This document shows, piece after piece, positions 5,571 through 58,600 of a DNA stretch of 64,000 bases. The translations under genes were made by a program, and so were the position numbers. The notes under the pieces are model-generated. The model searched no databases. It was not told the origin of the DNA and was given only the letters and a program-made list of their open reading frames with translations. This DNA is from Takakia lepidozioides (taxonomy: Eukaryota; Plantae; Bryophyta): assembly GCA_030704615.1 (NCBI GenBank), contig CM060734.1, forward strand, positions 37,572,001 to 37,636,000, in the 5' to 3' direction. Position 1 is the first letter of the stretch; every line of letters begins with the position of its first letter.

Positions 5571-5705
5571 TCAAAAAGGGGCTTTTAGGGTTTACAAAAA
5601 GGTTAAAAAACTTAAAAAGTTGCCCATCACGGTAGCGTGAACAAACTTAGAGCAAGCGGGAGGGGAGAGAGAGAGAGGGCTGGGACTTAGAGCGAGCGAG
5701 CGGGA

Positions 5706-23879: not shown

Positions 23880-25270
23880 TCTTCATATGTAACCCTATTT
23901 TAAGTAATTCCGGATTTTTGGCTTAAATCCGGACCAAACTTAATATATAACATAATTAAAATTATTTCAGGTATTAATAATAATATCGTGGAATATTGAG
24001 TCATTTAACTTGTGAAGTTGCACAATCCATTCATGTAACATCGAATGGTAAGTCGAATGACGTACTTTGCATCAGAAAATTATAAAGATAAGATCGATTG
24101 AATGAAATTATTGATAGATGTATGACGTAAACAGATGATTCAAGAATATAATATACAAATGAAAAGTAAACATCCATACCATGCTTACAGTATAGTAGTA
24201 CCATGAACCAATGTATTGCAAGTTTTCAATTGATGGATTAAAACGTTGAATGGAATAAGGTTGGATTTCAATGAAACCTGTGAATTATGTTTCAAAATAT
24301 TTAGGGATCATTCCGATATTCATATGAGAACCAAATATTGTGGAAGAGTGTCATGTAGATTCAACTATAAAGTCATTGAACCAAGCTGGAATTAGGTTTT
24401 AGGTTATAGAGTTTGGCTAGGGTACATTGAAACATAGTACTTGATATGAATGAAAAAAAAAAATATGGGAAAGTGTACAGATGACTTGGCACCTATGAAA
24501 ATTTGTTAATGAAATATCCCAACCACAGATTGTATCCAAATTTCTATGAGGAATGTGAATCAAACAGTGGAGTTTGGTTTAGGGTTTAGGGTTTTAGAAA
24601 ACTGTAAATGGACAAACAATTATGGTTTACCCATATGTAGAACAATTCATGAAATATTATCCCCACCACTTCGACGTACCCAAAATTGGAAGTAATAAAT
24701 AAATAAGCATCAAACATTGAAATTAGGTTTTAGGGTATAGAGTTTGCGAGGGTACTAACCATAGTACTTGGTATGAATGGAAAAGAAAATATTGGGAAGG
24801 GTACAGATGACTTGTCACCTATGATTTAGGGTTTAGGGAATAAAATTTCTCAACCACAAATTGTATCTAATCTATGAAGAATGCGCATCAAACAATGGAG
24901 TTACGTTTAAGGGCTTAGGGTTTAGGGTTTAGAGAACTATAAATGGACAAACAATTATGGAATGTGAGTATTTACGTGGAGGTCGTACAACAATTCAGGA
25001 AATATCCCCTCCACTTCGACCGCACCCAAAATTGGAAGCAATAAATTAAATAGGCATCAGACATTGGAATTAGGTTTTAGGGTACGGAGTTGAGTAGTGT
25101 AGTAAACATACTACTGGGTATGAATGGACCAAAAAATCTGGGAAAGTGTACAAGTGACTTGTCACCTAAGAAATTAGACTTGAATGAAATATCCCAAGGG
25201 CCATTCTATTATGCCCAACCTTGTAACCCTTGAAGAATGCGCATCAAACATTTGAATTAGGTTTAGGGTA
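23880..25270. repeat. Left subterminal region: three ~330-345-bp units rich in TTTAGGG
   Basis: AATTAGGTTTTAGG-(TT/GT)ATAGAG-type unit starts near 24390, 24720 and 25068; AAATGGACAAACAATTATGG at about 24607 and 24941. Confidence 0.8.
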
Positions 25271-25994: not shown

Positions 25995-28900
25995 TCAACC
26001 TTGTTCTCCGCCCGAGGTTGCATTGTCTTCATTGTTTGACTGTTGATTGGCCTCATCCAAATTTGCTCGTGCTTTCTCCGCCTCCACCGCGGTAATTTTC
26101 TTAGAGCTATTACGTGTCATGTTTTTTCTGGCGGGCATTGTCCAAACGACAGAGTTAATGTGAATCCACTGAGGGGGATCATCTGGATTGAACTCCCGAA
26201 CTTTGGACCAACAATCTCTGTACCTGTCCAAATCGGAAGGGCTACCTCCTTTTTTGGGTCTCCACCATTCGACGTGAACCTTTTTAAAATTCTTGGATCC
26301 TTTGTCGCGGACCACATCTGATATTGCCATTCCCATCCAAACTGGAAACGTCACAGTATCTACTGGTCGAACCAAGACGAAGAATCCGTTCTCAATGTCC
26401 TTGAACGGATTTAGAGGCTGCTTCGGTCTATCACACCGGGGGCCACAATACGGCTCCATGACTTCATCTTCTTCCGACAGATCATCCTCCACAGGTGTAT
26501 GGATTTCGGCTCTGTGGTGGTTGACAGCCCACTTGGTTGAGGGCCAAAAACCCTCTTTAAGCGCGATTGAATGTCGTGATTCTCTAGGAATGGGAAGATC
26601 AAGTTCTGCAAGGATTGCTTCCCAGTATTGATCATACTGTATCATGATGTCACGATAATGATCGTCAAGCAACATCCATTTCTTCCAGAACTCCCTGTAT
26701 TTTTTAATTCCAGTTTTGATAAAAGACTGTTTATCGGATGAGTCATCTCCCACACCCCAAATTGGTGTTTTTTTTACAGCCCTGGGTTGTACTGCTACAG
26801 GCAACTTTGGAGATCCATCGGGATTCGACTTCCACATCTTCACCGCATTTTTTTTGGGGAGCCACTCATAATCAGTAGCAAACTTCTTGAACTTCATGAC
26901 AGGCCAACCATCTTCATCTACATAGAATCGAAATACATAATACATGCATTTCTGTTTGCCCAACTAAAGCCTCTTTTCCATCGAGAATGCAACCGTCCAC
27001 ATACGCCTTGAAATCTGGCACCTCTTGAATGATTTGAGGAATAAAAAGCAGATCTTGAGATATCATAAAAAACCTCATAAGATCGGAGAGAACGTAGATG
27101 TTAATTTGCTTCAGCTTCTTCGATAAATAACTGAAGAATCCGTCGATGTCCTCATGGGTATGGCCAACCATGAGAAATCCCATCTGAATCTCCTCAAACA
27201 CTCCTCTCACAGCTAGGAGCGCCAGCATCCACCTGTTTTTGTTTTCCTTCACGCAGTTGTCCAACTGCAGGTAGAGTCTTCGCGGAAGTGAGACTTTTCT
27301 TTTTTTCTTCTCCTTATCGCCGAAAGGTTTCAGGACGTCGAGACACCTCGAGTTACGCTTCATGAGAGATTCGAAAAAGGAATTATGAGGTGGGTGGTCA
27401 AAGATGTTACGACTTTTGTGGCAAGAGGGCTTCTCTAGTTGGCGGAGGCATCTTGCTAGAGAGCCAATCGTGAAGTTCGGGTCTCCCAGCCAGAAGTCCA
27501 GAGAGTACTGTCCGTAGGCTCCGTCCCCGTAGCCGTGGGTGACCATGCCGGTTAGCGAGATTGGAAACTGACCTAAGCCAGAGACCATCTTGTTCGTCGT
27601 CTGCAACCTTGGAATAGCTGTTGTCATGGTTTTAGTCATGGTTATCTAGAATTACCTACTTCTAGATAACTAGGACATTTTAGATATTTATATTTATATT
27701 TTGTGTGTTGGGACTTCATTTGGTCTCACATGCCAAGTGAGGTGTCGAGCCTCACTTGAGACATGGAGATAGGTTTTCCCCTTGTGAGTGTTGAGGAGGC
27801 TCATATTCTTGTAGTTGAGCCTCCATGAGCTTCTCTCACCTCCATAGCTCTAGGTATTGAGAGGGAGTGTGTTGAGGGCTTTGTAGGGTGGATTCCTTTA
27901 GCAAAGGTGCCCTTGGCTTGACTTAGTTTATGTGATAGAGTGGATTTCACTTGGAAGGACTAGGGCTTGTTCTTCATGTGATTGCTTCATGCTTTGAGAG
28001 CTTTCGTTGTCTTCTACTTCTCTCATTTCTCATCTCTTATCACTACAAGAAGATTGTGGTATAGCTTTCTAGGATTGTGTGCTTAGATTGTGTGGTGGAC
28101 AACGATGTATGTTGTGGCACGATGCTTAGGTGCACGACACTGTTTTCCGATGATCCATCTTGTCATGAATGATGCAGAGGAACTCGGATGGCATCATAGC
28201 TGACTCATTCCTCCAGCTGTGATAGAGTCTCTTGCAAGACTCCTGAAGCCTAAGGTGCTTATCAAGTGCTTTCTTGTGCGAGGCCTGCTCATCGCTACGT
28301 TTGACCGACTTTTTGATTAGGTCTTTGAGCATCTCATAGTCTGTGCATTTGGCAAACGTGCTACCACTTTTTCTAACCTCGACATTGGGAAAAATCCGTT
28401 GTCTGATTCTGCTGACGGCTGCATGGGAGATAGGCTTCAACCCACATATTTTATTCGTCTGCAAGATAGATAGGGGGAAATGAACCTTGCGTGATCACCC
28501 GAGCTTTAATAGTGAGAGGTCTGATACATTGCGTGGAAGCAAAACAGGGAAGGTCCCTAAAAATATAGAATTCGGAAAATGGTAAAAAAAAAAAAAAACT
28601 GACCTCACACTCCTCATGAATTTTTTTCCAGTTCAGTTCAGGTGGCAGAACTCGAAGAGTATCTCTCCGTCCGTCTCCAATACAACGGGTCTTATGAGGC
28701 ATGAGATCGGAATTTCCGTTTATAATCGACATTAAGTTTCCTTCAGCTTGACGAGTTTGTGGACGGGGCCGTTTCACTCCGGAATTCCCGTGCAATGATG
28801 TAACCACACCCTCTCTGCTTAATTTTTTGTATTCCATGTAGGTTGAACGACCGATTCCGTGAATTGTCCACCAAGTAGTCTCACACACATCAACACCCTC

Positions 28901-29907
28901 AATGGTTATGTAGGCCTTTGTCGAAACCCCGTCGATTCGATGAAGTCTTTTGGGAACATCAAAACCGAGCTCTCTCCGTTCGTCGTAAGAGGATCCCCAA
29001 TAAGCGGTCCGGATAGCGAGTGTTTTTCTCCAGTCGAAATATTGGCAACACTGTAAATTGCAACATTGTTTGCTGCTGACTTCTCGAACTGCCTGCAGAA
29101 AGAGGCGAGTATTTATCTTTTTGGAATCGTCTTTTTTCGGATCTTTTTTTGGTCTGTTGAAATGCCGGTATGCTGCTTTTTTCACACCTTTCTCGTTGTG
29201 ACCAATATATGTTTGTTCCCGGCTATTGATGAGACTGTGAAGCTCATGTGACTATGTCCTACCACTATCAATCAACCGAGTCTGCGTCAATGGCCAGTTC
29301 ACGAGACACATGAGATTGGCCAAACCGCCATTCAAAATCCTTGTAATGAGCACCCCGACGTGATGTTCTCCAACTTTCTCATAAAGTATCACATCATCAG
29401 GATGACATGCTTGAATTTTGCCCTTCGTGCAAAGCACTTTGTTCATCTCCAAGGAGAATACACAATTTATTTCTCCAACTGTCTCTATCCATAACAACAT
29501 CATTATTCGGAGACGGCCTTGACATGTCAGATTCAATTTGTTCATTGAATTTTGGATGGTAATCAGCCGCAGATGTCAATTCGACCTCCGAGAACTGAGG
29601 AACCTCATTGTTGGTGTTGGTGTCAGTCCCAGTATCTTTTTGAATTTGCACCACATCCCAAACGACAAGTTTTCCGATTGCTTCTCCCAAAGAGTCCGCA
29701 TCCATGTGCGGATATGGCAACAATACAGAAGAATGTGCCGGATCGCAAGACACTATAACAACAGATATTGTGGACCCGTTTAGATGTCGTCCATGGCAAC
29801 TTCCGCAAACCAGTCACGTTGAGACATTCTGTTGTTGCGACGATAGAGTTCGAGCCCTGAAGAGTGAGGAAAACTTGTTGACCAGTTTGGAACAACGACA
29901 TTTCCAC
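25995..29907 (-). pseudogene. Sola-like DDE transposase (DUF7869-type), spliced, disrupted by frameshifts and a solo LTR
   Basis: CCNLQCC, FAKCTD, IIHDKMDHRK|TAIPRL (rejoined across the LTR), LYLQLDNCVKENKNR, FLMVGHTHEDIDGFF; C-terminal VLVRP..PVWMG..VEWW domain. Confidence 0.65.
27622..28139. mobile_element. Solo LTR (518 bp) with 4-bp TSD CTGT
   Basis: TGTCA...CGACA termini, CTGT on both sides (27618-27621, 28140-28143). Removing it restores KMDHRKTAIPRL. Confidence 0.9.
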
Positions 29908-32900: not shown

Positions 32901-35900
32901 ACGTGGTCGAAGAAATCATTCATTAGTAGGACAATAAACTCAGTGTTTTCAATTAAAAGGATTATGCAATGATTGATCCTTGCGCAATCGCGCGAATTTG
33001 ACTCCGTAGTAAACTGCATTGGATGGGAAATTGAAGATGTGATGCGAAAGAATGCCCTGAAGAAGCACGCGCGATTTGGTTGGTACTTGTATTCTATTTT
33101 AGGCAGGCATATATTCTCGTGAAGGAGACAATCCCGAGACAACTGTGCTGTCTTCCTCCACTGAAGAAGTGGGGGGAGACAATGTAAAGGATAACGCTGA
33201 TTCTAAAGACGTCTTCAATAAGGAGATTTCAGAAATAGACTCAGGGGTGGGATTCAGTCGTGTGGAGGGGGATATGCCATTACGGATGTCACCATATCAA
33301 GGTTTAAGCCAACGAGTTAGAGACATTGTTGATGGTTAGGCTTCTAGGGCATTGGTCGGCGATGAAAACTTTGTTGAAGTGAGTATTGCAGATTATGAGC
33401 TGTCCTGACACTTGTATAACCCAATTTATAACAAACTTGATATAACATCAGAATCTTTTACCAATGGAACTATTAACCTATTGCACAGTGATAGTCTCGT
33501 AAATGAATCGAAATTTATACGGAAGTCTAATCATCCATATTTTTTGTAGATCCGTGAGTCCAATACGGAGGAAGTAATACATACGAGAACAAACGACACA
33601 CAACAGCGTACAATGTAGAAACAATACGACTTGAGAGTGAGGATATCGTCGCCCAAGGTGGCAGCTTCAGAAACCGCGGGCGATTGCGCGAGGTTACTTA
33701 TGGGAGGGGTCGACAAAAACATACCGGACGGCGAAAGACCCATCGCCGGTGGAATTGGCGGCAAAACCTCATCCAGCTTGGAGCAAGTGCCGCCAAAGCT
33801 GGTACTTCATTCTCCGCCTTCTGCTTTCTTTTTTGCATTCCATTGCGAAAATATTTCAATGAATTAATAATTATTTCCTAATGGGCAGGATGATATGATC
33901 TATCCACCACACGACTATTCCCAAGCTGTCAATCCCGCGGATTTATTTGCTCTTCCAATGGGTCCAAATGGATGTCAGCCCGGATATTATGTCCTGGTTC
34001 TGGATGTCGGGTTCCTATGTGAGGTTTACCTCCAGAATGGGCCAAAAACCCCTCCCGCAACTCAACCTTGCATCTCCGTTGGAAGATTTAAGTTAGCAAT
34101 GCGACATGAGGTGGGAGACTTCTTCAAATGGGTCGTCAAGAAGTTTTGGGTCATCTTATGGAACACTGACAAAGAAGAGACTGTCGTGGATTTCAAATCA
34201 GCCTTGTTCGGGAGGAACGCCCACAAGGTCATGCATTACAGTTTCGATCTATGTGTGGAACATAGACTTACTTTCAATACATATTGGCCTACACTACCTA
34301 AGGCCCCAATCTACTTCAAACGACTTTACGACTTGTTCGTAGACCCTGACTCTAAAGCCTATAGGTCTAACACCCTGCTTATCGATGTCGTTGGGAACAT
34401 GTACAAGTCTTTCCTCAATCCTTTGAGCCTGGTCATCTTCCTACCTAAATACGAAGCACTTGTAGATCCATACAAGGATGATTTTTGGATGGGTCATCTG
34501 AAGCCCCACTTGAAGAAGTTGAAGCATTCAAAAATGGACACTTGGGCCTTCAATGAGCATAACCCTTTTGGAATACCTAAGGATATCTACTTTCAGGATG
34601 CTAGAGTGAAATTCATTAATGGCTGGGACTTTCCATGGCCTAAGAACAAGGAGGAATGGGATGCACATCTAAAGTACCTAGAGGCCCTGGAAGTGGAACA
34701 TGAGATATTAAAGTGACTAGTTTTGAGAATGTATTGGGATTCTGAGGTCATTGAGTTCCTTATCTGTTCATGGGATTCTTCTTTTCTTGATTTACTTAAT
34801 TGTCTTTATCACTCCTTCACAGATCCGACAGCCTAGATCTCCACCTGTGAGGGGACCTCACTTGATAATTTTTGACGTTAATGGAGTGCTATGCGAAATA
34901 ATGAAGCGCCAGAGCCCAGGACCTGCTCCACGTTTTTCGGAATCTGATTACAGCATTCCTGCTATTGTTGGGTATCGGCAAATCTTTAGACAGAAGATGT
35001 ACCGGGAAGTTTGGCAAGAGTTACACAAGCACTTCATTTTAGGTATCTGGAGCTGCATGGTGCTTAAAAACTTAAATGCCATTCTGGATTTGCTCCTACG
35101 TGGTCTTCCACGGCCAGCGTTCATCATGTCGCAGGAGGATTGTATCATTTGCCCAAGCAATTTGCACCCAAATTACCGAACGGAACAAGATCAACCTCAT
35201 GTGTTCTTGAAACCACTCCTTAAAGTATGGCATAGTTCTGAAGGTTTTTACAATCAGAGTAACACTCTGTTGATTGATGATACGGCTTTGAAGTGTTTGC
35301 TGAACCCTCCTGAATCTTATCTTCTTCTCAAGACTTTTGAGAACATCGACGTCGACGATTTCTTCCTTCTCAAACTTAGAGATTTCTTGCTTAGCTTCTT
35401 GAAATTTGAGAACGTCTCAAGCTTCTTGAAAGCAAGGAGAATATGATTTCCACCTTTCAAAATTAACGATCCACAATTCATGCCTCTTTTTGACTATATT
35501 GACAATTCACAATATCGTGATTTCCGAGTAAATGATAAGTGAATATTCGCGTCCTACTGTGGACACAGTTTACTATTTAAAATTGATTGTGAAGACCATG
35601 GAATTTCAGTCTTCTTCTGATATTCTTTTGCTTTGCATGGAAATTGTTATATTGCCAAACCATATGTAACGGTCAATGGATTCGTTGTTGCTTTATGTCC
35701 GTCGATTTCTTTTCGGAACCACGCGTGGTCACGCGTTCTTCCAACTCAACTTTGTTGACATATATTTCATTTGCAGGTATGCCCATATCAATATGTTCTC
35801 CATGCCACAAATGCATCTCCAATTGGCGAAACAATATCGTCTGATATTGTTGACGATGTAGAAATGATCAGGCCAGAAGCTTTCCAAGGACCTGACAACT

Positions 35901-36822
35901 TGTTGTCTACTCAGGCATCCATTGCTGTTATGGAGAGTGTTTCGAGGCTTAAAATGTCAAAAGGTGAATCCACAGTTAGCAGGGTCGATGATTTAACTGG
36001 GGTTGGCTGCATAGTGGAGAGCGACTCTCAATATATCTTGGGGATTCCTCCTTGGAGCCGTCCTTCTCCCAACACTTTCCACCAGACGCCGTCACGGGGC
36101 ATCTACATGAGTCTACCGAACAATTGGTTGCAACTATCGCTCAACTGCCTCCTCATCATGTCGTAATTCCAAGCGGGTCACCGGATCACGAGGGCTGGAC
36201 ACCTCAGCTGCTGAGAAGTCAGGTGATTTATTTCTATTTCATCCATGCGTTTTATTGTTACCGTGTTTCTGTTCATCCTCTGATTTTCTCTCTTTACTCT
36301 AGGCCAGAAAAGCTGCAACGTATGACCTTCCTGTGTGAAGCGACAACTTCTGTGGGGTTGTATTCCAAGGTAATCTTTTTTTTTCCGTTTGAATTCGGTT
36401 CAGGATGTGCAGAAAGAAAGAAACCAAATTCCATTGCCAACCGTCAGCGAGAAGATTATTGAACTCACTCATTCGCCGACTGAGGTCAGCACACCGACGA
36501 GACCGACAAATATTTCTGCACATCCCCAACCCCCCAGAATTCCGGATAGTCTTGTGTCAAGGAAACGTCGCAGATCACAGCAGTCAGCGGCGGTCGTGTC
36601 CGACGATGAAAAAACAGCATCTGACGTTCTGTTATCCCTTCAACATTCACCTGCCTCCAGTGGTAACCCGCCTCATAATCGGAGGGTAAATCTAGCAAAG
36701 GTAATAAGTATCTCCTTCACTTGGTCCTCTGTCTTATTGGTTATGGCTTCCTAGTAATCATTACATATATCATTTACGTTGTCGACACAACTTTCACAAA
36801 GTAACCTAGCGCGATCGCGCGT
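29914..36822. repeat. Dispersed palindromic motif CGCGCGATCGCGCG and variants, plus a ~300-bp duplication
   Basis: Copies near 29914, 30032, 32052, 32163, 32398, 32821, 32982, 33677, 36810; 32150-32450 resembles 32810-33100. Confidence 0.8.
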
Positions 36823-37879: not shown

Positions 37880-38100
37880 GGGGAGAGAGGGAAAATATTC
37901 ACGTCATGTCAAGACATGGACAAGACCCATAAGGGTCATTGTCAATTAAAACATAAACAGCCCTGGATAGGGCACTATCTCACATTTCCAGTCTTGTCAA
38001 ATCATCCTAAAAGACACCACCCAATCATCCAAGACAAAATAGGGTGGGAGGGCGGGGTTTGTTCTTGTGTGGGACAAGACAAGATATTGCTATCCCTGTG
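37880..38100 (+). repeat. ~220-bp dispersed repeat, copy 2
   Basis: Homologous to 9918-10142. Confidence 0.9.
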
Positions 38101-38657
38101 GGGAGTGAGAGGCGGTCGGTGCAGCCGCGGCACGCCAGTGTGGCGACCCCAGCGGCGATCAGGCGCCTTCGCGAAGGGGAGAGAGAAGGGCGGCCACCTT
38201 GGCAGGAGGAGGATCCGCTGCAACGTTGGGGAATCGCACGGGCGTCGCTGCCTCAGGGGGACATTGCACGGCAGTCGCAGATCTGGCGCAGAGGTGAGTT
38301 GAAGAGGCATCTCATTTTTTATTTTATTTTTTTGGTTTTTTGGATTATGGGGTTTTGCAAGGATCATTTGGGTTTATGGGTCTTTGGCTCCTAGGGTTTT
38401 AAGGGTTACATAGTTTAGTTTAGGGTTTAGTTTCATAGTTTAGTTTAGGGTTAGTTATAATATAGTTAGTTTAGGATTAGCTGCAATATAGTTTTATTTT
38501 TAGGGTTTTGTTTTTTTGTGGGTGGGGACATATGGCTTTACGTTTGTAGGGTTTTTTTTTTTCAAGTTTTTCCAAGGGTTGGGAGTGTAATTCCTCCGGA
38601 GGTTACAGTGGGTCACAATACGGTAGTCTACCTCTCTCTCGTGCTAGGTCATGCCGC

Positions 38658-40457
38658 GTGTTTATCGACGTGTCACGCTTGAGGATTCGTTGCCGACTGT
38701 GCCACAACCACCTGCTGAGGGCAAGACAGCACGTTCGCCTCGTCTACGAGTTAGGCGGCATCGCCATGTCTGCACAGCTTCGCTTCCACGGCCACCACCC
38801 CGAGGTCGTAGGCCGCCGAGTCCACAGGCACGAGCCCTGGGGAGACCCCGCCGGAACCGCCTCCCCAAGATTGAGTGTTGGTGCAGTTGGTGTTGGGCAC
38901 GACTACCGGTTGGGAGGACCACACCGATGATGCGGCGACCCCAGTTGTGCAAAAACATTACGCCAAGTATGAGATTGCTGATGCAGCAAAGGTAAGTCGT
39001 CCATATATCTTCTCACGTACTCCTCAATTAAAAATACTATATCTAATGAAACCTCGCGTTTGTGAATTGAGTATTGATGTATTTCATATCATGCATCTTG
39101 CAGCCCTGTCTTGATGTCCAAGCTCGCAATTTTTTTGTTGAAGAAGCATACCGATGCGGGTTTCTTCCTTCTTACGAGCCCCACCCCGTTCCGGATGTGA
39201 ACATTTTTTTCTCGCAACATGGCGTAGATGCAGTTTGTGAGGTAGCGGGGTACGATGCGTATTTTTCTATTTTTGGGCACCGGGCTAGGCGCTTGCCACC
39301 TACGCACACACATTCGTCATCCTCGACATCAGCACCCCCATCATCACCATCATCCGCATCATCCGTTCCTTCTATTGTAGATGGTCTTTCCTCATCACCA
39401 TTGCCATCCGAGGTCCCTCATACCGACCGGCTACGTGTCCCTTCCCCTCCATTGCCGAGACCACAGCCGCCACCGAGTCCGAGTTCGACATCCTCGACAT
39501 CGGCACCCCCATCATCACCATCATCCGCATCGTCCGTTCTTCCTATTGTACATGTTCTTTCCTCATCACCATCGCCATCCTGGCCATCTCGGCCAGTACT
39601 ACCTCCACGCGAGATCCCTCATACCAACCTACGTGTCCCTTCCCCTCCATTGCCGAGACCACAACCGCCATCGAGTCCGTATCCGGGTCCTCCGGCAGAA
39701 CCCGGATGGATCCTACCACCTTTGGGGACTGTGTATGACTGGGACCGATGGATCACTAGGTTCCCACTCCGGGAGAAGGACCCCCAAAGTGATGGACGGG
39801 CACCGCCCCTTAGGAGAAGTGGACCGAAGTTGTTTCGCACGGGTGTCCGCGCCTTCGCCGGCCTGATGACGGCACCATATGTCATCGTGGTGCTAGGGAG
39901 CTATTCACGATGGGAGTCCAACCCCATTTCTACCAATGTCTTGTGCTTTGTCCAGTTCCGATTCCCGAGGGTGAGCCCTTTCTTTTTTGGGGTCGCATGT
40001 ATTGCGTGATGGAGGCAATGGACCCTGGTATGGGTCGCGGACCTTTTTTGATGGAGGATGTAGTTTTGGGGGGAGGAGAGGATTTTGTGGATTTGTTCCC
40101 CTATTTTGGGTCGAGGTACACCCACCGGGAGTGGCAATTATTGCAAACAGACGGCCTTGGGTCCTTGATCCATCCTTACATCCTTGTTGTGAACGACAAT
40201 GATGTAAGGGCGAGAAATTTGGGCAGCAAAGCCCATATTTATTGTGACGGAAACCCCGATGTGTACGGCAATGTGGTTGGGCTCATCAACAGTTCAGTTA
40301 CCTTACCGCCGGGCCACACTGCCAACGTGTTTTGGGATGAACGCCATGATGGGGATAGTAGATTGGACCCTACATCACCACTTTTGTGATGACATGTGCA
40401 AGGAGGACTATTAGGGCTGGAGATGAGTTGTTTGCAGAGTATGACTTTAGGCGTTAG
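38658..40457 (+). pseudogene. CACTA-borne gene: Cys/His N-terminus, Pro/Ser-rich linker, C-terminal SET domain (frameshifted)
   Basis: IRCRLCHNH..HV; internally duplicated PSS-rich segment; PIPEGEPFLFWG ... YGNVVGLINSS...ANV, then in a shifted frame VMTCARRTIRAGDELFAEYDFRR* (SET NHS and ELxxxY motifs). Confidence 0.7.
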
Positions 40458-41759
40458 CCGACTTTCATCATGTGTAGATGGACGTAGGAAAACATTTTGT
40501 ACATTGAGGTGACTTCCTCCACCGTGTATATATATACATAGGCATTGATGTGTATTTGGATGTAGTTTTTCATGCTATATTCAAGGGAGTTTGGGTGGAC
40601 GTTATATGTGAATTTGGGTGAATTATATAGTGTCTCCTTCATGTGGTGAAGCAATGTATGTATCCCCCTCGTGTGTATAAATGTGTACTTTGGGTTTTAT
40701 GATAATGAAACAACGCCACGTATGGAAACTGATAATGACATGGTTGTTTTTGGCATCTTAGGATGCTGGCCACAACCCATGACGTTAATTCATGAAGTTC
40801 ATGACGTTAATTCATGAAGTTCATGATCTTGACATGAACCGGTATTTTGTTCATTCGGAGGGGGTGCGTATCAAAGGGTCCCGACCCCGTCTGAAATGGC
40901 GGTCTCCGATGATGAGGACAATGATGAGGACAACAATGACAATGGAATTATGCATGAGGATGTGGCAACAATGGAGGACCTCTTAATGCATCAGTTGGTA
41001 GATGAGGACACAGACTCTTTGAATGACATGGAAAAAGAAGCCAAAAGGATGTAAGCATGTTAGAGGTAGGCCAAAACTGGCGGATAATGGGTACTTGGGA
41101 GTAGTTTTGTGGCGTAGTGTAGTGGTGGTAGATGATAATATAAAAATAATGGCAAAACACAATCGTGCCATGAGTCCGAGTCCCGCATCCAACAGTCCAA
41201 GATTAAACAAAAAACAAGAAAATTAAAAAAAAAACGTAAATAAACCTGCCATCGAAAATAATATAGTTCAAAATTTCACCATTGTTTGGAGGTTTCAATT
41301 GCACGTAGCACTAGGTACCGTGGTTTGGAACACATCTTCTTCAGGAGTCACTCTTAAATAATAACATTCTTAGGTACTTAAATCGATGGCTTTTATAAAT
41401 TAGTAGTTGCGTATACAAAAATCATTAGACCTTTCATACATAGCAGGTACTCGACGGCTCTTTCTGAGACTATTTTGCAGGTATTCAAGCATGCATGAAA
41501 AAAGATTCATGCGTGCAATTGGTACTTTTTAGGGGTAATTTTGGCTTTTCATGTTCGAGGATGTAGCGAGCTACACCTACAACCTCCTCGCACAATACTT
41601 CACAAGTACCATCAAAACATACCCGTTTGCAGATTGGAAAAGTGTTATGTTTTCCTTACAACATCATCTTTCTTCCCATGTCATTTTCAAGGAAGTTCAA
41701 TGTAAGATCAGAATGCACTAGAGTACTTTGAAGACCACAGTCTGTCAAAATCCATTTGT

Positions 41760-44010
41760 GACAGTATTTTTGGCCAACCTCTAACATGCTTTCACCCAAA
41801 ACTCCCTTATACGAAGGGGCCAAAGTGAGTAGACTTTCAACCATCTTGTTGTTGCTGAATTTGTAAATCCGGTTTGGCATAAGTAATGTGGATATGTCCG
41901 CCATAATGCGGACTATTGCGGACTACATCCTTGCCCCACATTTGAAGCCGAGAATGCCACGATCAAGAAAAGAGGCAAGAGCAACCTTGGATGCTGTGGG
42001 GATGGGCTATAAGATTTTTCATGCATGTCCATGTGATAAAACCCTGTACTACGGAGAGGATGCGAAACTCACCAAGTGTCCAAAGTGCAACAAAGACCGA
42101 TATCGGGATGATATTTAAGGGAAGAAAGCCCCGCGCAAGGTATACCCGCGCCACAATACACTTGCATATTGCATTCTACCTTTTTGCATCCACTACAAGA
42201 TGTAAGGTTTTACTTAGAGATATGAATGACACTGATTATGATATGGGGCCGACATGGGGATGGTGCCAGAAAATGCACTACTTTCCAATCATCCCGCGAC
42301 TGCAAGCACACTACCGAAGCCCCTCATTGGCACAACTGATGAGATGGCACGCCTCGCATCGGAGCCCCTCGAGAAAGGTGTGCGGGCCACAAGATTCACA
42401 AGCATGGAGGCACACTGAAGAGATGTGGCCTTTTCTCTTGGAGGACCCACGACATGTCCGCCTCGGCTGCTCCTCGGATGGGGTCAACCCATACTCTGTC
42501 CAGTCATGTAGTCACTTGGCCGGTGACCATGGTGAATTACAACATCCCTCCGTATCTTTCAATAAAAAAAGGCCATATCATGTTGGCTGCCATTGTACCG
42601 GGTGAGTGTTCCCAATTCATGCTTATTATTTATTTGGATTTTACATTAATCTTCTTCTCTTTGGCGCAATTCCAATGGAAGATTGATGAGTGACGTAATC
42701 ATGTAGTAAGATGTGTCATTCATTATGAAGTATAATTAGCATGGTAGAGCATTGAAACAATTAATGGTGTGAATGTCTCATACATGGACACGTACTTGCG
42801 TCTTCTGCACCGTAGTGGGGTAGATGCACATGGAAACATTTTGTCTTTCCTAATGTGGCGGAATGTCTACAGGACTTATTGTTTGCTCGGGGTTGAGCAC
42901 TAAAGGCTATCACGCATGCCTACATTGTGGCGATGAACTTGATGCACAAAGCTCCAGCAATCTTCGCAAGATGGTGTATCCTGACTACCGCAAGTTTCTT
43001 CCTATGAGCCATCATTGGAGAAGAAGAGACAAACACTTGTTTGATGACAAAGTGGAGTTACGTCCTCCACCTGTGACACCATTCAGGCACTTTTGGGAAG
43101 ACCGATGGAAGGAGGCCTATCCGGAGAGGTCCTGTGAAGTGGAGGTGTCCGGCATGAAGCGGCTTTCAATCTTCTACGAGTTGTCATATTGGGCGGTACA
43201 TATTCCACAAAAACACCATCAATATTGCTATGCATGTATGGGACCTGAAGATTCGTCATCTTCTAGATCCCATGCATATTGAGAAGAATGTTTGCTCGTC
43301 CCTTTTCGTGTTCTTCATGGCACGCCGACAAAGAAGGGAGTGGCTGCAAAATGAGTTTCTCTCGATGTTAGAAGGAACTTGAGGAGCAGGGTCGCATGTC
43401 CCATCTATGGGCCGAAGAAAATGGTGTGGACCCAAAGGGTGTTGTACGGTGGAAGTATAGGCGTGCACCTTGACAATGGACAAAGGAGGAATACAAGAAA
43501 GTGATAGCCACCATAGGAGTTGTCTGAACACCAACTGGTTATGGGTCATCCCTCCGTATGAAGTTCGACGAAGATGGGGTCCATGGTTTGAAGTCTCATG
43601 ACTACCACAATCTATTGCAAGACATCTTGCCCATTGCAGTAGGTGGGACATTGACTCCCGAGGTTCGCGAGACAGTCTATAGATTGGGAGCATTGTTCCG
43701 GTGGATTTGCTCCAAAGAGCTGGAGGAAGCGGACTTTTCACGCATGAAGAAGGAGGCGGCGGTGGTCATGTGTCTGTTGGAGATGCACCTTCCTTCCTCC
43801 TTCTTTGACATCCAAGTGCACTTGGTAGTGCACTTAGTGGAAGAGGCTTCGATTTCCGGCCCCGTTCATTCTCGGTGGATGTACTACCTTGAGCGATATA
43901 TGAAGACTTTGAAAGCACATGTAAGACAAATGGCACACCCGGAGGGTAGCATGGCGGAGGGGTATACATTGCAAGAGGCTATGTTCTACTGCGTGGAGTA
44001 CTTGACAATT
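41760..44010 (+). pseudogene. CACTA/EnSpm TnpD-like transposase (Transposase_21 + DUF4218), degenerate
   Basis: HACPCDK..Y..KCPKC...RY, YFPIIPRLQ, LMRWH, RHVRLG.SSDGVNPY, WPV...YNIPP, SGLSTKGYHAC, DPMHIEKNV, GLKSHDYH, FFDIQVHL, GPVHSRWMY..ER, PEGSMAEGY. Confidence 0.95.
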
Positions 44011-44689
44011 GCTCAATTATGTTGGCTGTTTCAAATGCCTCCCCTACTGTATTATGGGGTAGCATATCCACTTTCTTTTGTAATTCAGGTCTTAGTCCAC
44101 TCATAGACTAAGTCTTCTGTAATCGTGGTTCTGGTACAACAGCCAACTTTTTCATCATTAACTCCATTTTCTCCATATATTCTTCAACAGTTTCATGCTT
44201 CTTTTGCCTCAACTGTTGTAGACTCCCATACACTTCATCCTCAGTTTTGCTTGTCCTGAACCTGTTTCGGAATGTTGTACTAAGACCATTCCAAGTTAGG
44301 AAATGATTATTAGGAAACCTTGCATATCATTCACTTGCTTTCTTGATAAGTGAACAAGGAAACAGTCTCAATTTGGCATCATCGCCATTTTCATTGTTCA
44401 CTGTACACATGTGCTCAAATTGGCTGATGTGTACATCAGGATCCCCTTTTCCTGCATATATTGGAAAATGTGGCCCATGTTGGAGGTACCACCATCTGTG
44501 GCCCTACACCCTGCTCTCTGACAGGTGTTGGTCTTCCTGTAGGTGTTGGTCCTTGAGGATCTGCTATTGTAGTGATGGAACTCCCACCAGGTGTTGGCCC
44601 CTGAGCACTCCCTGTTACTGGCCCCCCTGTACTTGTAGTACCCTCAGCTCTAGTTGCACTACTTACCATTTCTGCCTTCAACCCAAACC

Positions 44690-45725
44690 CTAAACCCTCA
44701 TCGGAAACCCTAAACAAAACCCTACACCATTGTTACGTCTAAACCCTTATCCTTCCTTTGCAAATGGGAATGAAGTATCCATACCATAATCATATGTATC
44801 TTAATACCAGGTTCCAAGGACGAATCCTCAATCTAAATACTTCTCCGGCCCAATGACTCTTCCATAATATTTGTTTCTCTATTTTTATTTTTATTTTTTA
44901 TCCTACTAACACACACGAGTGTGAGTCTTCCATATTTGTTTGTCCATTTGTACCTTAAACCCAAACCGAAAACCCTACCTTTACCATCACCCCTAAACCA
45001 TTAATCTTACCATAAACCAATAACTTTAATGTACTACCTTAGTTACACTCCAAACCTTATTGTACTACCATGTTACCTCTTCTCAATGTTTCATGCTCTT
45101 TTAATATTTTCTTTTGTTGGATAAGGTATGATATAATGATTACAGGGATATCAAATTCCTCAACCATTTCTTAATTCTACCGAGTGTGAGTCCATCATAT
45201 TTGTTTGTCTTTTTGTACCCTAAATCCAAACCCTAAACCCTTACCCTTACTGTAAACCCAAACCTTATTGCACTTCTCTCTAGTTACACCCCAAACTTTA
45301 TAGTACTACCCTAATACCTCTTCCGAATGTTTCATGCTATTCTAATATTTTACTGCCCTTGTCACATCCAAAACATGATTCATTCCAATGGCGTGGTATG
45401 TGAACATTGTGCTTGATATGAAGATTCAATCGATAAAATTATTAGCAAGTTGTATTGAGTATGGTAGAGTAGAAGTCTAGCCCATGTTCGATGCGACCCA
45501 TTTGTTTATCGCGATCCTGCAATGGAATATTACATTATTCGACTTCCAAGTGGACGTTCAATGAATTGTTCAATACTGCTACTTCACATTGAGCACTTCA
45601 ATGTCAAATGGACCTTTTATATGACACATTTTGAAACAAGTATGACATCACCTATAATTTCACAATGTTCAATCACACATTACACCATGATATTATTAAT
45701 ATTTCAATTAATTTTAATTCAAATT
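44690..45725. repeat. Right subterminal region, inverted homologue of the left one
   Basis: CATATTTGTTTGTCCATTT (about 44931, variant at about 45197) closely matches the reverse complement of the left AAATGGACAAACAATTATG; CCCTAAA motifs; 45660-45720 resembles the reverse complement of 23950-24015. Confidence 0.7.
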
Positions 45726-48234: not shown

Positions 48235-51200
48235 TCACCAGTAATCCCCACAAGAACAGACCCCATCTTTGAAGTGGTGAAAGCGATTGGCATCCCTCAC
48301 AACAACTGGTCGCTCAACAATCTTTGAGATGAGCTTGGTTACAGTGTGGCAGTCACCACACACCCGAAGGTTTTTGATGATACGGATAGGCGTCCCAGGG
48401 GGTGTGCTGATAAGCCCAAAGGCAATGGCTAGCTTCTCACTGTGGTAGCTAAGAGAAAATTCCTTACGCTCCTCCTCAGCATCGTGCAATACAAAGCTCG
48501 TGTCAGGCATGTAACCAGCCTCCTTCATTTGCCCAGACAATCTCTTCAGCTCAGCATGGATTTCCTCAATTTGGGGATGCAATTTGTCCTCTACAACAAA
48601 TGTATGGACGTGGTTGTCCACCTCAATGCAGCTGCGCCCTGGCTCCTTCCTGATCCCTCTGTCCTGCATCATTTTCCTCACCTTCGCTGTATCCTCCCAC
48701 CTGCCGGCAGCGGCATAGATGTTTGATAGCAACACATATATCGCAGGATCCTGTGGATCCAATTCGAGAAGGAACTTCACTGCACGTTCTGCTATCCCTA
48801 CATTGCCATGAATTCTGCAGGCACCAAGCAAGGACCCCCACACAGAAGCAACTGGTTTGACAGGCATTCTGTTAATGAAGTCCTCTGCCTCATCCAACTG
48901 CCCAGCACGACCGAGGAGGTCCACCATGCAGGCAAAATGCTCCACGACAGGTGTGAGGTCATGATCTCGACTCATGTAATCGAAGTAGTGACTGCCTTCA
49001 TCAACTAGGCCCACATGGCTACAAGCAGAAAGAACACTTACAAAGGTGATACAGTTTGGCTTCAAACCTTCTTGTTGCATTTGTTCAAAAAGCTGGAGGG
49101 CCTCCCTACTACGTCCATGCTGACCATATCCTGCGATCATCGCACTCCATGAAACAACATCTTGTTCAGCCATATTATTGAACACTTGACGCGCATCCTT
49201 CAAGTCCCCGCATTTGGCATACATGTCAACAAGGGCAGTCTGCAGTATGACATCTTGCACAATTCCAGCTTTGATGATGTCAGCATGTACTTCTTTGCCC
49301 TTCTCCAGGGCTGCCAGAGTGGCACACACGTTCAGAATAGAAATGAAGGTGACTTTATTGGGCATCACCCGTGTCTGCATCATATGCTCATACATCTTAA
49401 AAGCCTCCCTAGCACACCCATGCTGAGAATATCCACCGATGATCGCGCTCCATGATACCACGTCCGGCTTCAAGCCTTCCTGTTGCATTTGTTCAAATAG
49501 CTGGAGGGCATCCCTACCGCACCCATGCTGAGCATAGCCTGCTATCATTGCATTCCACGTGACCAAATTTCGCTCAGCCATATTGTTGAACACTTCATGG
49601 GCTTCCTTCATGTCCCCGCATTTCGCATACATGTCGACGAGGGCAGTTTCCAGAATCATGTCTGGTGCAATTCCAACTTTAATGAGGCCGGCATGGACCT
49701 CTTTGCCTTTTTCCAGGACTGCTAGGCTGGCACATGCATTGACAACACCAATGAAAGTGACATTGTCTGGCGTCACCCCTTCTTGTATCATCTGCTTATA
49801 GATATCAAAAGCCTCCCTACCACACCCATGCTGTGCATATCCTGTGATCATGGTGCTCCATGATACTACATCTCGTGTAGCCATCTTGTCAAACAGACGA
49901 CGCGCATCCTTCATGCTTCCACATTTGGCATACATATCCACCAAGGTATTCTCCAAAATGATATTTGGCGCAATTCCTGCTTTGATGATATCAGCATGGA
50001 CCTGTTTTCCCTTTTCTAGAGCTGTAAGGCCGGCAAAAGCCTTGAGAACACAAATGAACGTGACCCTGTCAGGCATCACCCCTTCGTGTATCATATGCTC
50101 ATACATTTCAAAGGCCTCCCTACCACACCCATGTTGAGCATATCCTGTGATCATTGCACTCCATGACACCACATTTCGTTGAGCCATATTGTCAAACACT
50201 TGACGTGCATCCTTCATGCTCCCACATTTGGCATACATGTCCGTAAGAGCAGTCTCCATTATGATGTCTGGTGCAATTCCACATTTGCTGATATCAGTAT
50301 GGACCTCTATACCTTTTCCGAGGTCTGCCAGGCTGGCACAGGCCTTGAGAGCACACGTGAACGTGACCATGTTGGGCATCACCCCTTCCTGTTTCATTTG
50401 CGTATAGATATCATAAGCCCCCTGACAACACCCATGCTTCACATATCCTGCCATCATTGTGGTCCACGTAAACACATCTCGTTCAGGCATTTTCTCAAAT
50501 ACTTGGCGTGCATCCACCAGGCTCCCACACTTGGCATACATGTTAACAAGGGCGTTGAGCAGAAAGATATTTAACTTGAATCCACTTTGGACAATGTGGG
50601 CATGTACCTGCTTTCCCTCTGCTAGGCCTTGGATGTTGATGCATTCCCGCAAGAGACACTCATAAGTATCAGAGTCTGCCGAAATGCCTCGTTCCTCCAA
50701 AATGTGCAGGGCCTCTTTCAGTCGTCCTGTCATACATAGCTTCCTCACATCACCATACTGCGCTTGACCTTGGATCATGGCAGCTAACTCTGTTTTCACC
50801 CAAGGAGGGGTTGATAAAGCTTCAATCCAAAGACCCTCGCTTGAACGCTTATGTCTGAAGTCTGGCGATTTTGGACTCTTCTGTGAAAACCATCAATGCG
50901 CGACTGAGCAGCCATAGCTTAAACCACGACCTCATACAGATCAGGTAACAACCACCGAGCTTCGACAAGAAGTGGGCTTTTACTCAGGACATTCAGTTAA
51001 AAAGGAAAACACTCATCAGTGTAAGCAATTGGAGATGCAAATGAGTGCACAAAACATCAACATGCCAGCTTCAATTACAAGCTCTCCCAGATTCATTCAG
51101 AAAGTTAGCCTCACCTTATCAAGCCTGTTGTCCCACCACTGTGAAGAATCTGAGAAGAACTCCCGCCAGACCTGATCTTTGCTCATTGTTTGACCTGCAA

Positions 51201-52689: not shown

Positions 52690-55600
52690 CTACAAAGGAG
52701 GCCCAGCAGCCCAGTAGTTAGGGCGGCAAGCACTAGACGGTGTGTCATGGACAGTGGCCCATTTCCATGTGCCTTCTTCAGTCTTTTGCAGATCTGCAAG
52801 CTGCCACCACACAACCGACAAAATTGAGGTCATTTCCAAATGTCATGTCATTAAGAGTACAAAATTCATGAAAACAACTCATGTTTTAACCTGATTGAAA
52901 CCAAATGATGGGTTGGAAATTGCCGCGCTCTTGGACCTTTAACAAACAGGCATAGGTGTAGAAATTGGTTTACTCCTACAACAGTACAATTAGATTTCTT
53001 AGGGATTGACCCAGTTCAGCAGCCAATGTTAAGTCAGTACAACATTTACTGTTTGGCAGGAGAAAGTAGAAGAAACGATCGGAATTCAGACGTTTTCCTT
53101 TACAAGCTCCAATCTAATTATTGTCTATCCACCCAAATTCACCACTACAGTGCAAAGTTGCGCCCAGGTGGTTTTGTGAATGCCTAAAAGCTCCAACCCA
53201 AAGATGACAAGGTGAAGAATTGTACCCGACCATCCCGGAGCACAAATACAGCTGAGCCAACAGAGAGTGCTATAGGACGAACTGGCGCAACCTGCAATAT
53301 TTAGAGATTTTAGAACACGCTATTTACTATGTTGTGTCAAGCTTGGTTTTAAGCTGATAAGCCCAATGGAAACAGCTCTTTCCTTTACATACACAACTAC
53401 CTGAAAAAACAATTCTAGGTGATTGGTCGAAAAAGATAATACAAACGTGCATGCACCCAGCAGCCCCCCTCTGAATACGAGGGTACACTAATGCACACAC
53501 CAAGAAAAGGAACTCAGAAAATCAGTATGTGAATGTAAGATCATCAACAATATGTTTGCATGATTCAGCAGATCGAATGCAGATAAACTTGTGAGGATAA
53601 AAGACCAGATTTTCTTACCAAAGGGTTGCATTCACCATCGAATGAGACGTAGACATCAAGGACCCCAAACTTGAGATTGCTTTGGGCAAAGACGTTATTG
53701 TTTTCAAGGGGGCTCAGAATCATATCTCTCTCAGGCCCCTTGTGTTGAACTGCTGTTCCTTGTGGAGCTTGCATGGCAGTTTCTGGCCCAGGGTGTCCAT
53801 GATCAACCCAAATCCACTTGTCTTCCACGAGGTGTCGCCCAAAAACTCGCCCATCGGAGACAATCACAAACAAGTGTTCCCCCCCTATGGCAGGCCCTGG
53901 CGACGTGGCAATAGGAACTCCTGGTTTTGGGCACCCATGTTCTCGCCAACCCCACCCTTCCATGGCCTCCCAGTAGAATTCAACCAACCCGCCATCTTCA
54001 GCACGCATCAAAAGAGACCCTTTCGTGCTTTGAGAAATAGGTCGCATTGATGCCCCTAAGGCCACAGATTCAGCATGCCAATATTAGGAGAAGAATGCCA
54101 ACAAGGGAGAAAGGAAGGGAAGATGTGAGGGGTGACCCATATCACTTCCATGAGGGTAAGCTTTTGGGGCAGATAAACCCAGTGGCTAGGCCACTGTGGT
54201 GGAACTTTGTACCCACATGTGCCTATTTACTTCCCTTATTTAGGCAACCCAGCTGCAAGGTGGGTCACAGGGTAGACCAGGCAACTGACTACTAGGTCCA
54301 CGTATAGTCTCACCTTTGGGGTGCCAAGTCCAAACATGTTGAAGCTGCACCAAACTCACCAAACAACAACCCCTGCTAACTCGTCTCTTCTTCTGTTGAA
54401 TGAGTGTCCATGGCATGAAAAGATATAAAGAGAGAGCAGCAGTCAGCCTACTTTTTGAATTATAAAATACATCACCATTATGAACGCTCGAAAGTTTACC
54501 TGCTATCTTGGAGAGGATGATGTGAGAAGGTTGCTTGTGGGCATACCACAGCCGGGTTACCCTGTTGTACTGGTATAATTTTCCATTTCTCCCCACCACA
54601 AATACAACCCGATAACGTAGCATTTCTTGGTCTAATATGGCAGCAACACGAGTGTCTGGCGGATGGCCACAGTCTTCCCAGGCAAACTGCCGCAACGCTA
54701 CCTGCTTGAATGAGGCAGCTGGATTTCAAGAGATGTGAATGAAAATTCAGATTGACCACAAACAAACATGTGGATGACTTCATGACAGTGTGACACCAGT
54801 TTGGGTGTCATGTATCCACAGTAGGGGAGTTGAGCATCAAGTCAAATCCTACAGATTGTACTCATAAGACGTTGTTTGCCGTAGCCTTGTGGCCATTGAC
54901 CCCGCGCCCAGTTTGAGCGGGAACAAAAGGGACAGAACCTACCTCTGTCAGGGGCTGACGTTGGTAGTAAGACTTACCTCCATATAAAGAATTAATCCGG
55001 GTTTTCCAGATATCCTCTAGAAATCCCTTCACACAAGCATCAATCTGCTGTGTGTGATTTGCCCAAAAACTAGGCCTCAGGAGGGCCTGGGCTTTTGGCT
55101 CAGCCTCGAGACTTTCAAAGTTGGTAAACAGGGGTACAGGCACAATTCCCTTAATAGATTTGAAGAGAGCGTCTCTTTGGTGAGAGAACCCCGGACAGTG
55201 TATCAGAAAATGAATCCTGTCTTCAGATTGCCCACACAACGGGCAATTGCACTCTCCCTTTCCTCTCTGCTTCTGTTTGCTGTTCAAAGGTAGGCTTCCT
55301 GCCCTGAGTTTAAATTTCAGTCTAGTGCCGAGAGTGGGTAGACCCTTGAGGTCATCCAAGATGTCCTCCCCCATGTCACAGACTGGAAACAAGTTCAGGG
55401 AAGTTTTCTGCCTAACTTCATTTTCATCAGACAATCTCATGGCAACAGACATGGCTGAGGACACTACAGCCTCCAAGTCAGATTTATCCAGCAGGGTCAA
55501 GACTTGCGGATCCAGGTCCAGGTCCTTGAGAATCTCTTCTACTCTCTTCTGCCAGGACTTAGCCTGTTTGACAGGGCGGTCCTGTTTCCAAGATATAGAG

Positions 55601-58600
55601 TCGATTAACTTAGGATATCTGGTGTTGGGCATATGTTGCAGCTGACCCCACCATCTGACCTTGAATTCATCTCGTCGGGAGCTTAGGGACGGAATGCCAA
55701 ACTCACCCCGAACAGCCACATTGCTGTTTTGGAGCTTGCTGACATACACTCCTTAAGCACCCCCACTTGAATGGATTCTAGAGACTTAGCCTGGTTGGAG
55801 TTATCAACCCATATAGCAGATCCGTTACTCCAAGGCAGGTCTAATAACGCGACAAAGCATGGTTTTCTTAACCTCAGAGTTGACCCCTCTGCAGTGGAAA
55901 AATTTAGTGAGAGCTTTGCCCTTGCCAGTTTGAACAACTTTCCGGATATGTGCAGCCCAATTACAATTGGAGGAGAACTCAACGCCCAGGTAAGTGTAGG
56001 AAGGGAGGACCGGGATCTCTTGGCTACCCCACTGCCACTTAAGATCACTTCCTCCCTCTCCTCTGTCGTTGAATGCTACCACTGCAAATTTGCTGACATT
56101 AGCCTCTAGCCCCCAAAGATCAAAGTATCTCTTCGCGCAATCAATCAACTCCTGGAGATTGGTTGGAGTCTCCCCTATGCCTGCGAAGTCATCCGCAAAC
56201 ATAAGGGCTGGTATGGTGGTATCACCCACCCTTAACCCAAATCCCTCACTTTCCACATCCTCGAGGAGTTGATTGATGAAAACATTGAAGAGCAGAGGGG
56301 AGAGAGTACATGCTTGAGCTACACCTTGGTCTATGTCAAAGAAGTTGGACTTCTGTCCGTTAACAGTGACACAGCTTTTGGTGTGAGCATACAAATTTTG
56401 GACAACTCTCCACATCTTTCCCTTGATCCCACAAGACCAGAGGCGGAACCATAGGCCATCTCTCCACACTGTGTCATAAGCCTTTTTGACATCCAGGAAA
56501 AAGACATAAGTGGGTTTCCCTTCTTTTTTCCTTCCCTGGATAATCTGGCTTAGAGTGAAGATATGATCCAAACAGCGCCTGTTTCGCCGAAAGCCAGCTT
56601 GGCCTTCGTGGAAACAACCTCTAGACTCCAGATCAACCTCGAGACGAGTACTTATAACTCTGCAGAATGTCTTGCCAACAGCATTGAGGAGCGTGATGCC
56701 ACGGTAGTTCCCCGGTTCTTCTCTGTCACCCTTCTTGTATAGATTGACAATGACCCCCTGTCGCCAGCGAAAGGGGATCATTTCAGTCTTCCAGATAAGG
56801 TTAAAGAGGAGAACTAGGGCCTCTATGATGGGATCGCCACCGTGCTTGATAAGCTCGTTGACAATTCCATCAGGTCCACCAGCTTTATATCCATTTAAAT
56901 GTTCAATTGCTTCCACAATCTCAGAAGAACTAATGGGAGCATTATAAGCCATTGAAATATACTCCAGTTCATCAGGGCTGTTTTGAATCATAGGAACAGT
57001 TTTTCCAACTGTGTCCCTCCATTCAGCAGAAGACCCCTCACTGTTAGACCTAGAAGTTCTGCCAAGGATACTGTAGTGAGTTTCAAAGGTTTTGACAATG
57101 TAAATCGATGAAGTCACCACTGCACCTTTAGTAGTCTTCAGCGCTTGTACTTGCTGACCGTTTTTCGGCTTGTACAAACGTTGAAGGGCCAACCAGAATT
57201 TCTTGTCAATACCACCATGGTGGTTTGAGTTTATTTCACTGTATAACTTGTCCCAGTATAATTTCTTCTGAGACCTAACAAGCTGATTGATATCTTTACG
57301 GAGCTGGTAGTACCTCGCCCACAATTCTCTGTTGGTTTCCAAATTGCAGCACTCTTTATAGAGGGCTCGTCTCTCAGCTATCTTGAGTTTAATCTCATTA
57401 GTCCACCAATTAACTGCTCTACCGCAGACAATTAGTTTCCTCCCAATGATCTTGTCAGCCACGGAGGAAACGAAACTCTCCCAAGAGTCCACTGCTCTTT
57501 CGACTTCATTTCTTGCGTTAACAGAGCGTGACTGAAGTTCTTGGAGCGATCGGACAAAATGAGGGAGAGCCTCTTGCAAGGCCTGGACGTACTCAGCCTT
57601 GACCTCCTCATTGTGGAATTTTTCTATGCGCCACTTCCGAATCGAACGTTTCACAGATCTCTTCGTGGTGGGAAAACACCTTTTGATCTCAGTCCAAACC
57701 AGGAAGTGGTCAGAGGTACCAATATCAGTTCTGTCGATCAACACATTGGCACACTGGGGGAACAAAATTTTGTCCATTATGATATAGTCCACAATGGAAC
57801 GTTCCCCAGTTTGGGGTTTCTCACGAGTCCACTGCACTTGGTCACCTCTTGTCCTGTTATTCAAGGTCAAAAGCTGAAGCTCTTCTAGACAGTTAATTAA
57901 CCGTCTGCCATTAGAATTCAGCTCGTCCTCACCAAAAGGTCCAATGATATCCTCCTGATGGATCCCTTTGCCCACCCGGGCATTGAAGTCCCCCAATAGT
58001 ACCACCTGACCTTTGGCAAGGAACGAAGCACAGTCCAGCTTTACATCTTCGAAGGCCTTGTCTGCGTCAGCACTAAGGGTCCCCTCTGTGGGCATGTAAA
58101 CACAACCAACAAAGAGGTCCTTTGTACTTATGCCGCACTTCAAATTCAGTTTTAGCCAGATACTATGCTCGTACCTCAAACCCTACAGAAAGACGTTGCT
58201 ACGTGGACTTTTGAACACTCAAAAGACACAAAAACAGCCACAAAGGTGCAGAGAAGCAGTCAATGTTCCTTGCACTAGCATATGCTTTGTGAATTAAAAC
58301 AACAATTTCCTTGACTTCACACCTTGAAATCCCTGGAAAAACTGGAAAGACTGCTTACCAGAAACTCCAGCAATCGACCGTTTTCATCGAGAAAGAAAAG
58401 TGCATCATCCACTGTGACCAGACGAGTCTCCCCGAGCAAACCAGGATCCCATGGAGGTCCCGCAATGACTTTTCTTCCTCCCTCCATTTCTGTACAATTC
58501 AGCCACCTCAATGCATCCCCAAGCCTTTCTCGCATCAAAAGATATCCATCGGTGTCAACAGCAAACAGACTGCCGTTGTAAACCCCAAGAACACCAGCAA

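Follow-up and report, generated by a model that had tools for sequence, protein, structure and literature searches.

The 64,000-nucleotide stretch of Takakia lepidozioides DNA analysed here (the window) contains a CACTA transposon, a decayed member of a multi-copy family. On balance, we consider it probable that one gene of this element gives rise to a predicted lysine methyltransferase, which would act on the element's own chromatin in the element's favour, and likely to the transposase as well. The proposal is built on the exon layout below, on a SET-family domain recognised through its relatives, and on the recurrence of the same layout in Riccia sorocarpa and in metagenome loci.

Exon layout and decay of the window copy

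The features of the element and its immediate surroundings are:

38140..38293 (start approximate), plus strand: 5′ untranslated exon, followed by a GT donor at 38294 (X8 contig)
38294..38647, plus strand: GT-AG intron in the 5′ UTR (X8 contig and sequence)
38648..38991, plus strand: first coding exon (exon 1), with ATG at 38651, an Arg/Pro-rich stretch, then CxCxxC...H, and a phase-0 donor
38992..39103, plus strand: GT-AG intron of 112 nt between exon 1 and the SET exon (X8 joint; an X5 DNA contig crosses the intron)
39104..40457, plus strand: SET exon, with Ser/Pro linker, SET and a stop at 40455-40457
40762..41046, plus strand: acidic exon leading into the transposase, with a phase-0 acceptor (AG 40761)
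41047..41797, no strand assigned: MITE-like insertion that interrupts the transposase frame, bounded by 30-nt terminal inverted repeats and by a flanking duplication of 4-6 bp
41796..44006, plus strand: CACTA (tnp2) transposase, broken by stops and frameshifts; it contains introns and is cut off near 44006
44006..44700 (right end approximate), minus strand: high-copy LTR gag fragment outside the element, truncating the transposase

The splice evidence comes from a single run, X8, which, like X9, is guessed to be RNA, none of the runs being recorded as such; X9 contributes a single short diverged piece in this region. An X8 contig carries 154 loose letters before 38646, the end of which matches the end of the 5′ exon (38293), and the end of exon 1 directly adjoins 39102 in an X8 contig. 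Exon 1 is thus spliced to the SET exon in this putative RNA run. The start codon is found at 38651, not at 38658 where the preliminary description began the gene, and the Cys/His motif, placed there ahead of the SET-like pieces, occupies a separate exon. Its likeness to the CACTA transposase-associated motif is indirect and comes from relatives rather than from the window, where exon 1 has no PF13963 match and does not rise above background with a motif profile built from four relatives; two of the three related metagenome loci match PF13963 weakly (L002 and L003, E 5e-4 and 1.6e-3, below the cut-off), and exon 1 of L001 has no PF13963 match. Within the SET exon, a Ser/Pro-rich repeated linker spans 39313-39679 and the SET domain about 39950-40454.

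The window copy is broken and decaying. Behind each of 38943, 39844 and 40371, contigs from other copies are one base longer, revealing three frameshifts in the window copy, the latter two within the SET exon, which has zero in-frame stops. The extra base behind 40371 is present in contigs of all four runs, and this frameshift is private to the window copy or its assembly. With the three bases restored, 38651-38991 and 39104-40457 form a single frame of ~565 codons without internal stops. Among the 40 difference rows listed, of 97 between the window copy and other copies, 36 are coding, with 28 amino-acid-changing and 8 silent; T>C and A>G together account for 23 of the 40. The DNA runs hold many variant contigs, 80-99% alike across the region, their depth being no measure of copy number, and loose ends at 40383 and 40420 in runs X1, X5 and X9 suggest that this species also has another, diverged SET subfamily. 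Directly upstream of the 5′ exon lies a 220-bp repeat (37883-38100, 95% identical to 9923-10142), and the region around it is very high-copy in the runs.

The SET domain and its relatives

Judged from sequence comparisons, the assignment of 39814-40457 to a real SET-family domain is confirmed. Three-frame translation of the window places GLINSS...ANV within the open reading frame 39814-40386, which reads MGRGPF...LFPYFG...GNVVGLINSS...ANV, and ARRTIRAGDELFAEY in a different frame, ended by the stop at 40455-40457; both had been singled out earlier as SET-like motifs in two frames, and both are upheld by the translation and by a profile of relatives. This family profile, built from 16 relatives with the window excluded and run over 2075 stop-to-stop window segments, scores 93.9 bits against 39814-40386 (profile 34-161) and 23.0 bits against 40362-40454 (profile 172-195), the two pieces lying in the order of the profile. 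The best other window segment reaches 8.3 bits, and the window SET read through with an X at the break reaches 120 bits. A phmmer search of 39976-40371 over 1.84 billion representatives returned ten proteins at E<=0.001, nine of them relatives (33-47% identity) and one an unrelated repeat protein.

Comparison with PF00856 gave a divided outcome. A Pfam scan of both window SET pieces produced no match at E<=1, whereas 9 of the 29 proteins scanned from these searches passed the cut-off (3/10, 4/16 and 2/3 locus SET exons, the count including the three SET exons from metagenome loci). These relatives contradict the absence of a SET match, which the preliminary description had named as a refuting outcome. 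The split window pieces, which have no Pfam score, are assigned to the SET family by the phmmer, profile and Riccia comparisons. A word-based homologue search with 39814-40386 scored none of 35 candidates, and solved-structure and Atlas searches with the split window piece gave no useful match.

Hallmarks of SET domains are a GxG cofactor motif, Y-x-G and a terminal GEELxxxY with the catalytic Tyr, together with the canonical motif RxxNH(S), i.e., NHS with its His. The window reads GRG, PYFG and GDELFAEY, and the SET motifs are conserved across alignment rows that are ~30-45% identical to its own. The family alignment retains GxG, Y-x-G, N/Q and the terminal Tyr; this Tyr is seen in the 11 rows that extend to it in frame, as well as in the last of the window pieces. 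The canonical RxxNH(S) is replaced by G-x-x-N/Q-S/N, with the His missing in all 22 covering rows of the 24-row alignment; the alignment contains no post-SET cysteines, and no pre-SET modules were found. Against solved structures, the family profile matches two SET structures (LegAS4) at E ~8e-6 and EZH2 below significance. The predicted folds of two relatives (AlphaFold), compared with the SET pseudoknot fold, are poor, with pLDDT of 50 and 53; with these low-confidence models, every PDB row listed by Foldseek is a SET domain, none at E<=0.001, and a VIA search gives Z<=3.0. LegAS4, the closest solved relative, also lacks the NHS His and is reported, in the accessible part of the source, to methylate H3K14 (10.64898/2026.05.29.728679), so that the His is non-obligatory and its loss leaves the question of activity undecided.

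The same observations bear on a rather unlikely reading, in which the layout is unchanged but the SET protein either methylates a target other than histones, such as a silencing protein of the host or the transposase itself, or binds non-catalytically as a decoy or scaffold. Non-histone substrates are known for many SET proteins; the family-wide loss of the His, the absence of pre- and post-SET modules and the lack of a close solved relative also suit this reading. Against it stand the conserved GxG, Y-x-G, N/Q and terminal Tyr, as well as the precedent of LegAS4, which as the nearest solved relative shows the same His loss and yet is a histone methyltransferase.

The SET exon recurs with its surroundings elsewhere. 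All three metagenome loci (L001, L002 and L003) contain a CxCxxC-H exon, a phase-0 intron and a SET exon ending in a stop. In L002, the one locus long enough beyond the SET (L001 and L003 end too early), these are followed by another acceptor in phase 0 and by an acidic exon, the end of which is a short motif resembling the start of the transposase. The L002 copy is also broken, with an in-frame stop at L002:1135-1137 within the linker of its SET exon, and its SET core nevertheless passes the Pfam cut-off. In the genome of Riccia sorocarpa, 13 related gene models are spread over 7 chromosome-scale sequences, and one of them (P0017) starts with the CxCxxC-H motif; some Riccia genes annotated as “SET domain-containing” would accordingly be parts of transposons.

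The layout common to three unrelated loci and to dispersed Riccia copies argues that the SET exon is not a one-off capture, a possibility that the preliminary description had raised against itself; the exon also occurs in further copies of the family and in CACTA families distant from it. That a fragment of a host gene was captured once and neutrally, in the Pack-CACTA style, is therefore extremely improbable. Such a capture would agree with the broken and drifting state of the window copy, but the same exon holds the same place in elements that are ~30% identical, those of Riccia included, and other copies are frame-intact and spliced (X8, putative RNA). Moreover, no host SET family is found among the phmmer matches at E<=0.001, which argues against a recent capture of a host gene.

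As to the more distant origin of the exon, a complete relative has SET clusters as its Atlas neighbours (0.96-0.97), several of them from giant viruses. A family tree of 20 rows is unresolved, with the window row on a long branch, and, as it contains no host SET proteins, gives no information on where the exon came from; 92 pattern matches in viral contigs included no relatives. Tentatively, and with more doubt than we attach to the main proposal, the element could represent a long-lived land-plant CACTA lineage that encodes a histone methyltransferase derived from outside the host, possibly from a virus-like source. Alternative splicing would link this enzyme to the Cys/His module of the transposase, which is predicted to deliver it for enzymatic anti-silencing. 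If true, the enzyme would rewrite the element's chromatin directly, unlike the non-enzymatic VANC and TnpA.

The giant-virus neighbours also touch on the direction of the mark. One giant-virus SET enzyme is a repressive H3K27 writer, and since the nearest Atlas clusters are giant-virus SET proteins, the enzyme might write a repressive mark and so limit the activity of its own element. H3K27me3 is carried by bryophyte transposons, according to the accessible part of the source (10.1101/2022.10.24.513474), which is in keeping with such self-repression. We nevertheless hold it to be unlikely, as the accessory regulators VANC and TnpA activate their elements in the descriptions available.

The transposase, its probable splicing and the surrounding DNA

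The expectation that a CACTA transposase lies downstream of the SET domain proved correct: PF02992 is matched at 41946-42602 and 42854-43279 (E 1.7e-9 and 1.3e-11) and PF13960 at 43528-44103 (E 2.6e-33), on the same strand as the SET and in broken frames. The MITE-like insertion is missing in three of the four runs, where an empty site joins 41040 to 41796; with the insertion removed, the acidic exon, which in the window has a broken frame and a 22-nt tandem duplication, runs into the transposase start. Indeed, an X5 contig of 1599 letters joins 39650-41040 to 41796-42023 and thereby links the SET to the transposase across the empty MITE site. On the far side, the gag fragment is marked by PF03732 at 44111-44326 (E 3.5e-10) and by contig loose ends at 44006.

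CACTA/EnSpm elements end in CACTA/G terminal inverted repeats flanked by a 3-bp target duplication. A comparison of 22 left with 34 right candidate ends yielded none that is convincing, and because the gag fragment truncates this copy, the ends of the element may be lost. The element is thus provisionally classed as CACTA by its transposase, terminal repeats not having been found in the window. The 91 flanking segments scanned, of 111 listed, contain no further transposase domains.

Two phase-0 acceptors follow exon 1, both in the window and in L002. In run X8, one contig (320 letters, depth 6.16) has letters 9-216 placed on 38786-38992 and 104 letters unplaced; one X8 contig, also of depth 6.16, covers 40843, 41 letters from the contig end; and the X8 depth in bin 40506-40922 is 1.24, corresponding to ~84 letters at depth 6.16. 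From these matching depths and lengths, the simplest reading is that exon 1 and the exon at 40762 adjoin in a single X8 contig. The SET exon thus probably serves as an alternative last exon, placed after the first coding exon of the transposase and before the second. Of the earlier picture of a SET gene just upstream of the transposase, the linkage stands, and a separate gene is unlikely.

In Riccia, 9 of the 13 models include the acidic exon, P0020, P0021 and P0024 match the window's transposase (E<=7e-8), and two further models end at its first residues. The predicted P0020 and P0021 proteins combine SET and transposase, and would fit a SET-transposase fusion protein in which the stop is avoided by splicing out of the end of the SET. 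We regard such a fusion as having a slim chance. In the window, as in 3/3 loci, the SET frame stops just past the terminal Tyr, and the Riccia models exit the SET at several different points and drop the terminal Tyr, which looks like gene-prediction error rather than true fusion. A weaker point is that no relatives of 990-2825 residues are found among 4238 candidates, lengths of 621-989 residues lying outside that range. We thus retain the alternative last exon as the likely arrangement.

The surroundings of the element contain several further features. A weak AT-rich inverted similarity connects 23954-25100 with 44700-45719, both with TTTAGGG-like tandem repeats, and could mark the ends of a larger element or of two related elements; the stretch 23950-45720 encloses DUF7869, NIF and CACTA genes. 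A NIF/FCP1-like phosphatase frame lies within 33871-36750 on the plus strand (PF03031 at 34727-35443, E 1e-6) and is preceded by a similar-looking frame. Both face away from a broken DUF7869 gene (25995-29813, minus strand; PF25273, E 4e-33), with CGCGATCGCG motifs in between; the 33-37 kb region is multi-copy in the DNA runs and is possibly another transposon with phosphatase cargo. Further to the left, direct repeats of 1.26 kb (1828-3090 and 11046-12305, 96.6% identical, 9.2 kb apart) are LTR-like and enclose reverse-transcriptase-like frames (3117-4724, minus strand) and an O-methyltransferase-like fragment (5691-6134, labelled by reading the translation). A 95-bp tandem array with an inverted end occupies 13260-13995, and 21173-22100 is an array of about 120-130-bp units with a long palindrome in each. 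To the right, LINE-like endonuclease and reverse transcriptase frames (54862-58182, minus strand) lie among host-gene exons, and an intact PPR gene of 885 codons (48235-50892, minus strand), which we take to have a DYW-type end, is likely an organellar RNA-editing factor. By this gene, the window is plant DNA.

Proposed action and comparison with known systems

In the mechanism we propose, one promoter would give rise to the 5′ exon and exon 1, from which splicing to the near acceptor would produce a protein of Cys/His module, Ser/Pro linker and SET, and skipping to the far acceptor would produce the transposase. Through the common Cys/His module, the SET protein would be recruited either to the element itself or to the complex of its transposase. 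There, the SET protein would methylate histone lysines at the element, so that the element could be expressed and mobile despite host silencing, and would thereby fill the accessory-regulator role held by TnpA in En/Spm. This supports the preliminary reading of a candidate transposon-encoded chromatin modifier. The conserved, spliced SET exon offers a testable case of a plant transposon that may write its own chromatin marks, in host lineages whose transposons are partly silenced by H3K27me3, and the window adds splice evidence (putative RNA run) from the same species.

SET domains on transposons have already been published; an enzyme exon nested in a land-plant CACTA transposase gene is described in none of the titles and abstract starts that our search covered (Repbase and subscription papers lying outside it). 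The red-algal Plavaka PAG2, in the EnSpm/CACTA superfamily, carries a long-retained PF00856 SET cargo, and Helitrons and HarbingerS also carry SET domains, as stated in the accessible part of 10.1101/2025.02.11.637652. As described there, Plavaka PAG2 resembles the window element in being an EnSpm-superfamily DNA transposon with a SET domain and a proposed action on chromatin. It has, however, an accessory gene besides the transposase locus, in which an N6-adenine methylase (PF01555) is joined to the SET, whereas the window element has the SET alone in an exon inside a land-plant transposase gene, the comparison being one of layout; PF01555 has no match in the window segments scanned or in the relatives. 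HarbingerS and MuDR families of Phytophthora encode SET genes (cited in PMC12730594) and, so far as that source describes them, are likewise DNA transposons encoding a SET lysine methyltransferase, which in the window element is predicted; they differ in superfamily and host kingdom, and a common first exon is not described in the part of the source available.

Among free-standing SET proteins, LegAS4/RomA of Legionella is compact and also lacks the motif His, and giant-virus SET proteins form the nearest Atlas clusters; both show weak similarity to the family. VANC of the Mutator-like VANDAL elements is, in the descriptions available, comparable in its proposed element-encoded anti-silencing role, for which the SET protein is a candidate, and differs in being another protein from another superfamily. 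VANC and TnpA act, by the same partial accounts, as sequence-specific regulators. The closest parallel in gene structure is En/Spm, where alternative splicing of one gene yields the transposase (TnpD) and TnpA, and in Arabidopsis TnpA-Spm3 makes members of its own family CG-hypomethylated, according to the accessible part of 10.64898/2026.08.24.746577. No TnpA-like gene was identified in the truncated window copy. In both elements, a transposase and an accessory product would come from one CACTA gene, the transposase splice being deduced here; TnpA-like products are, in that account, transposase-derived DNA-binding domains, whereas the alternative product of the window element would be an enzyme domain.
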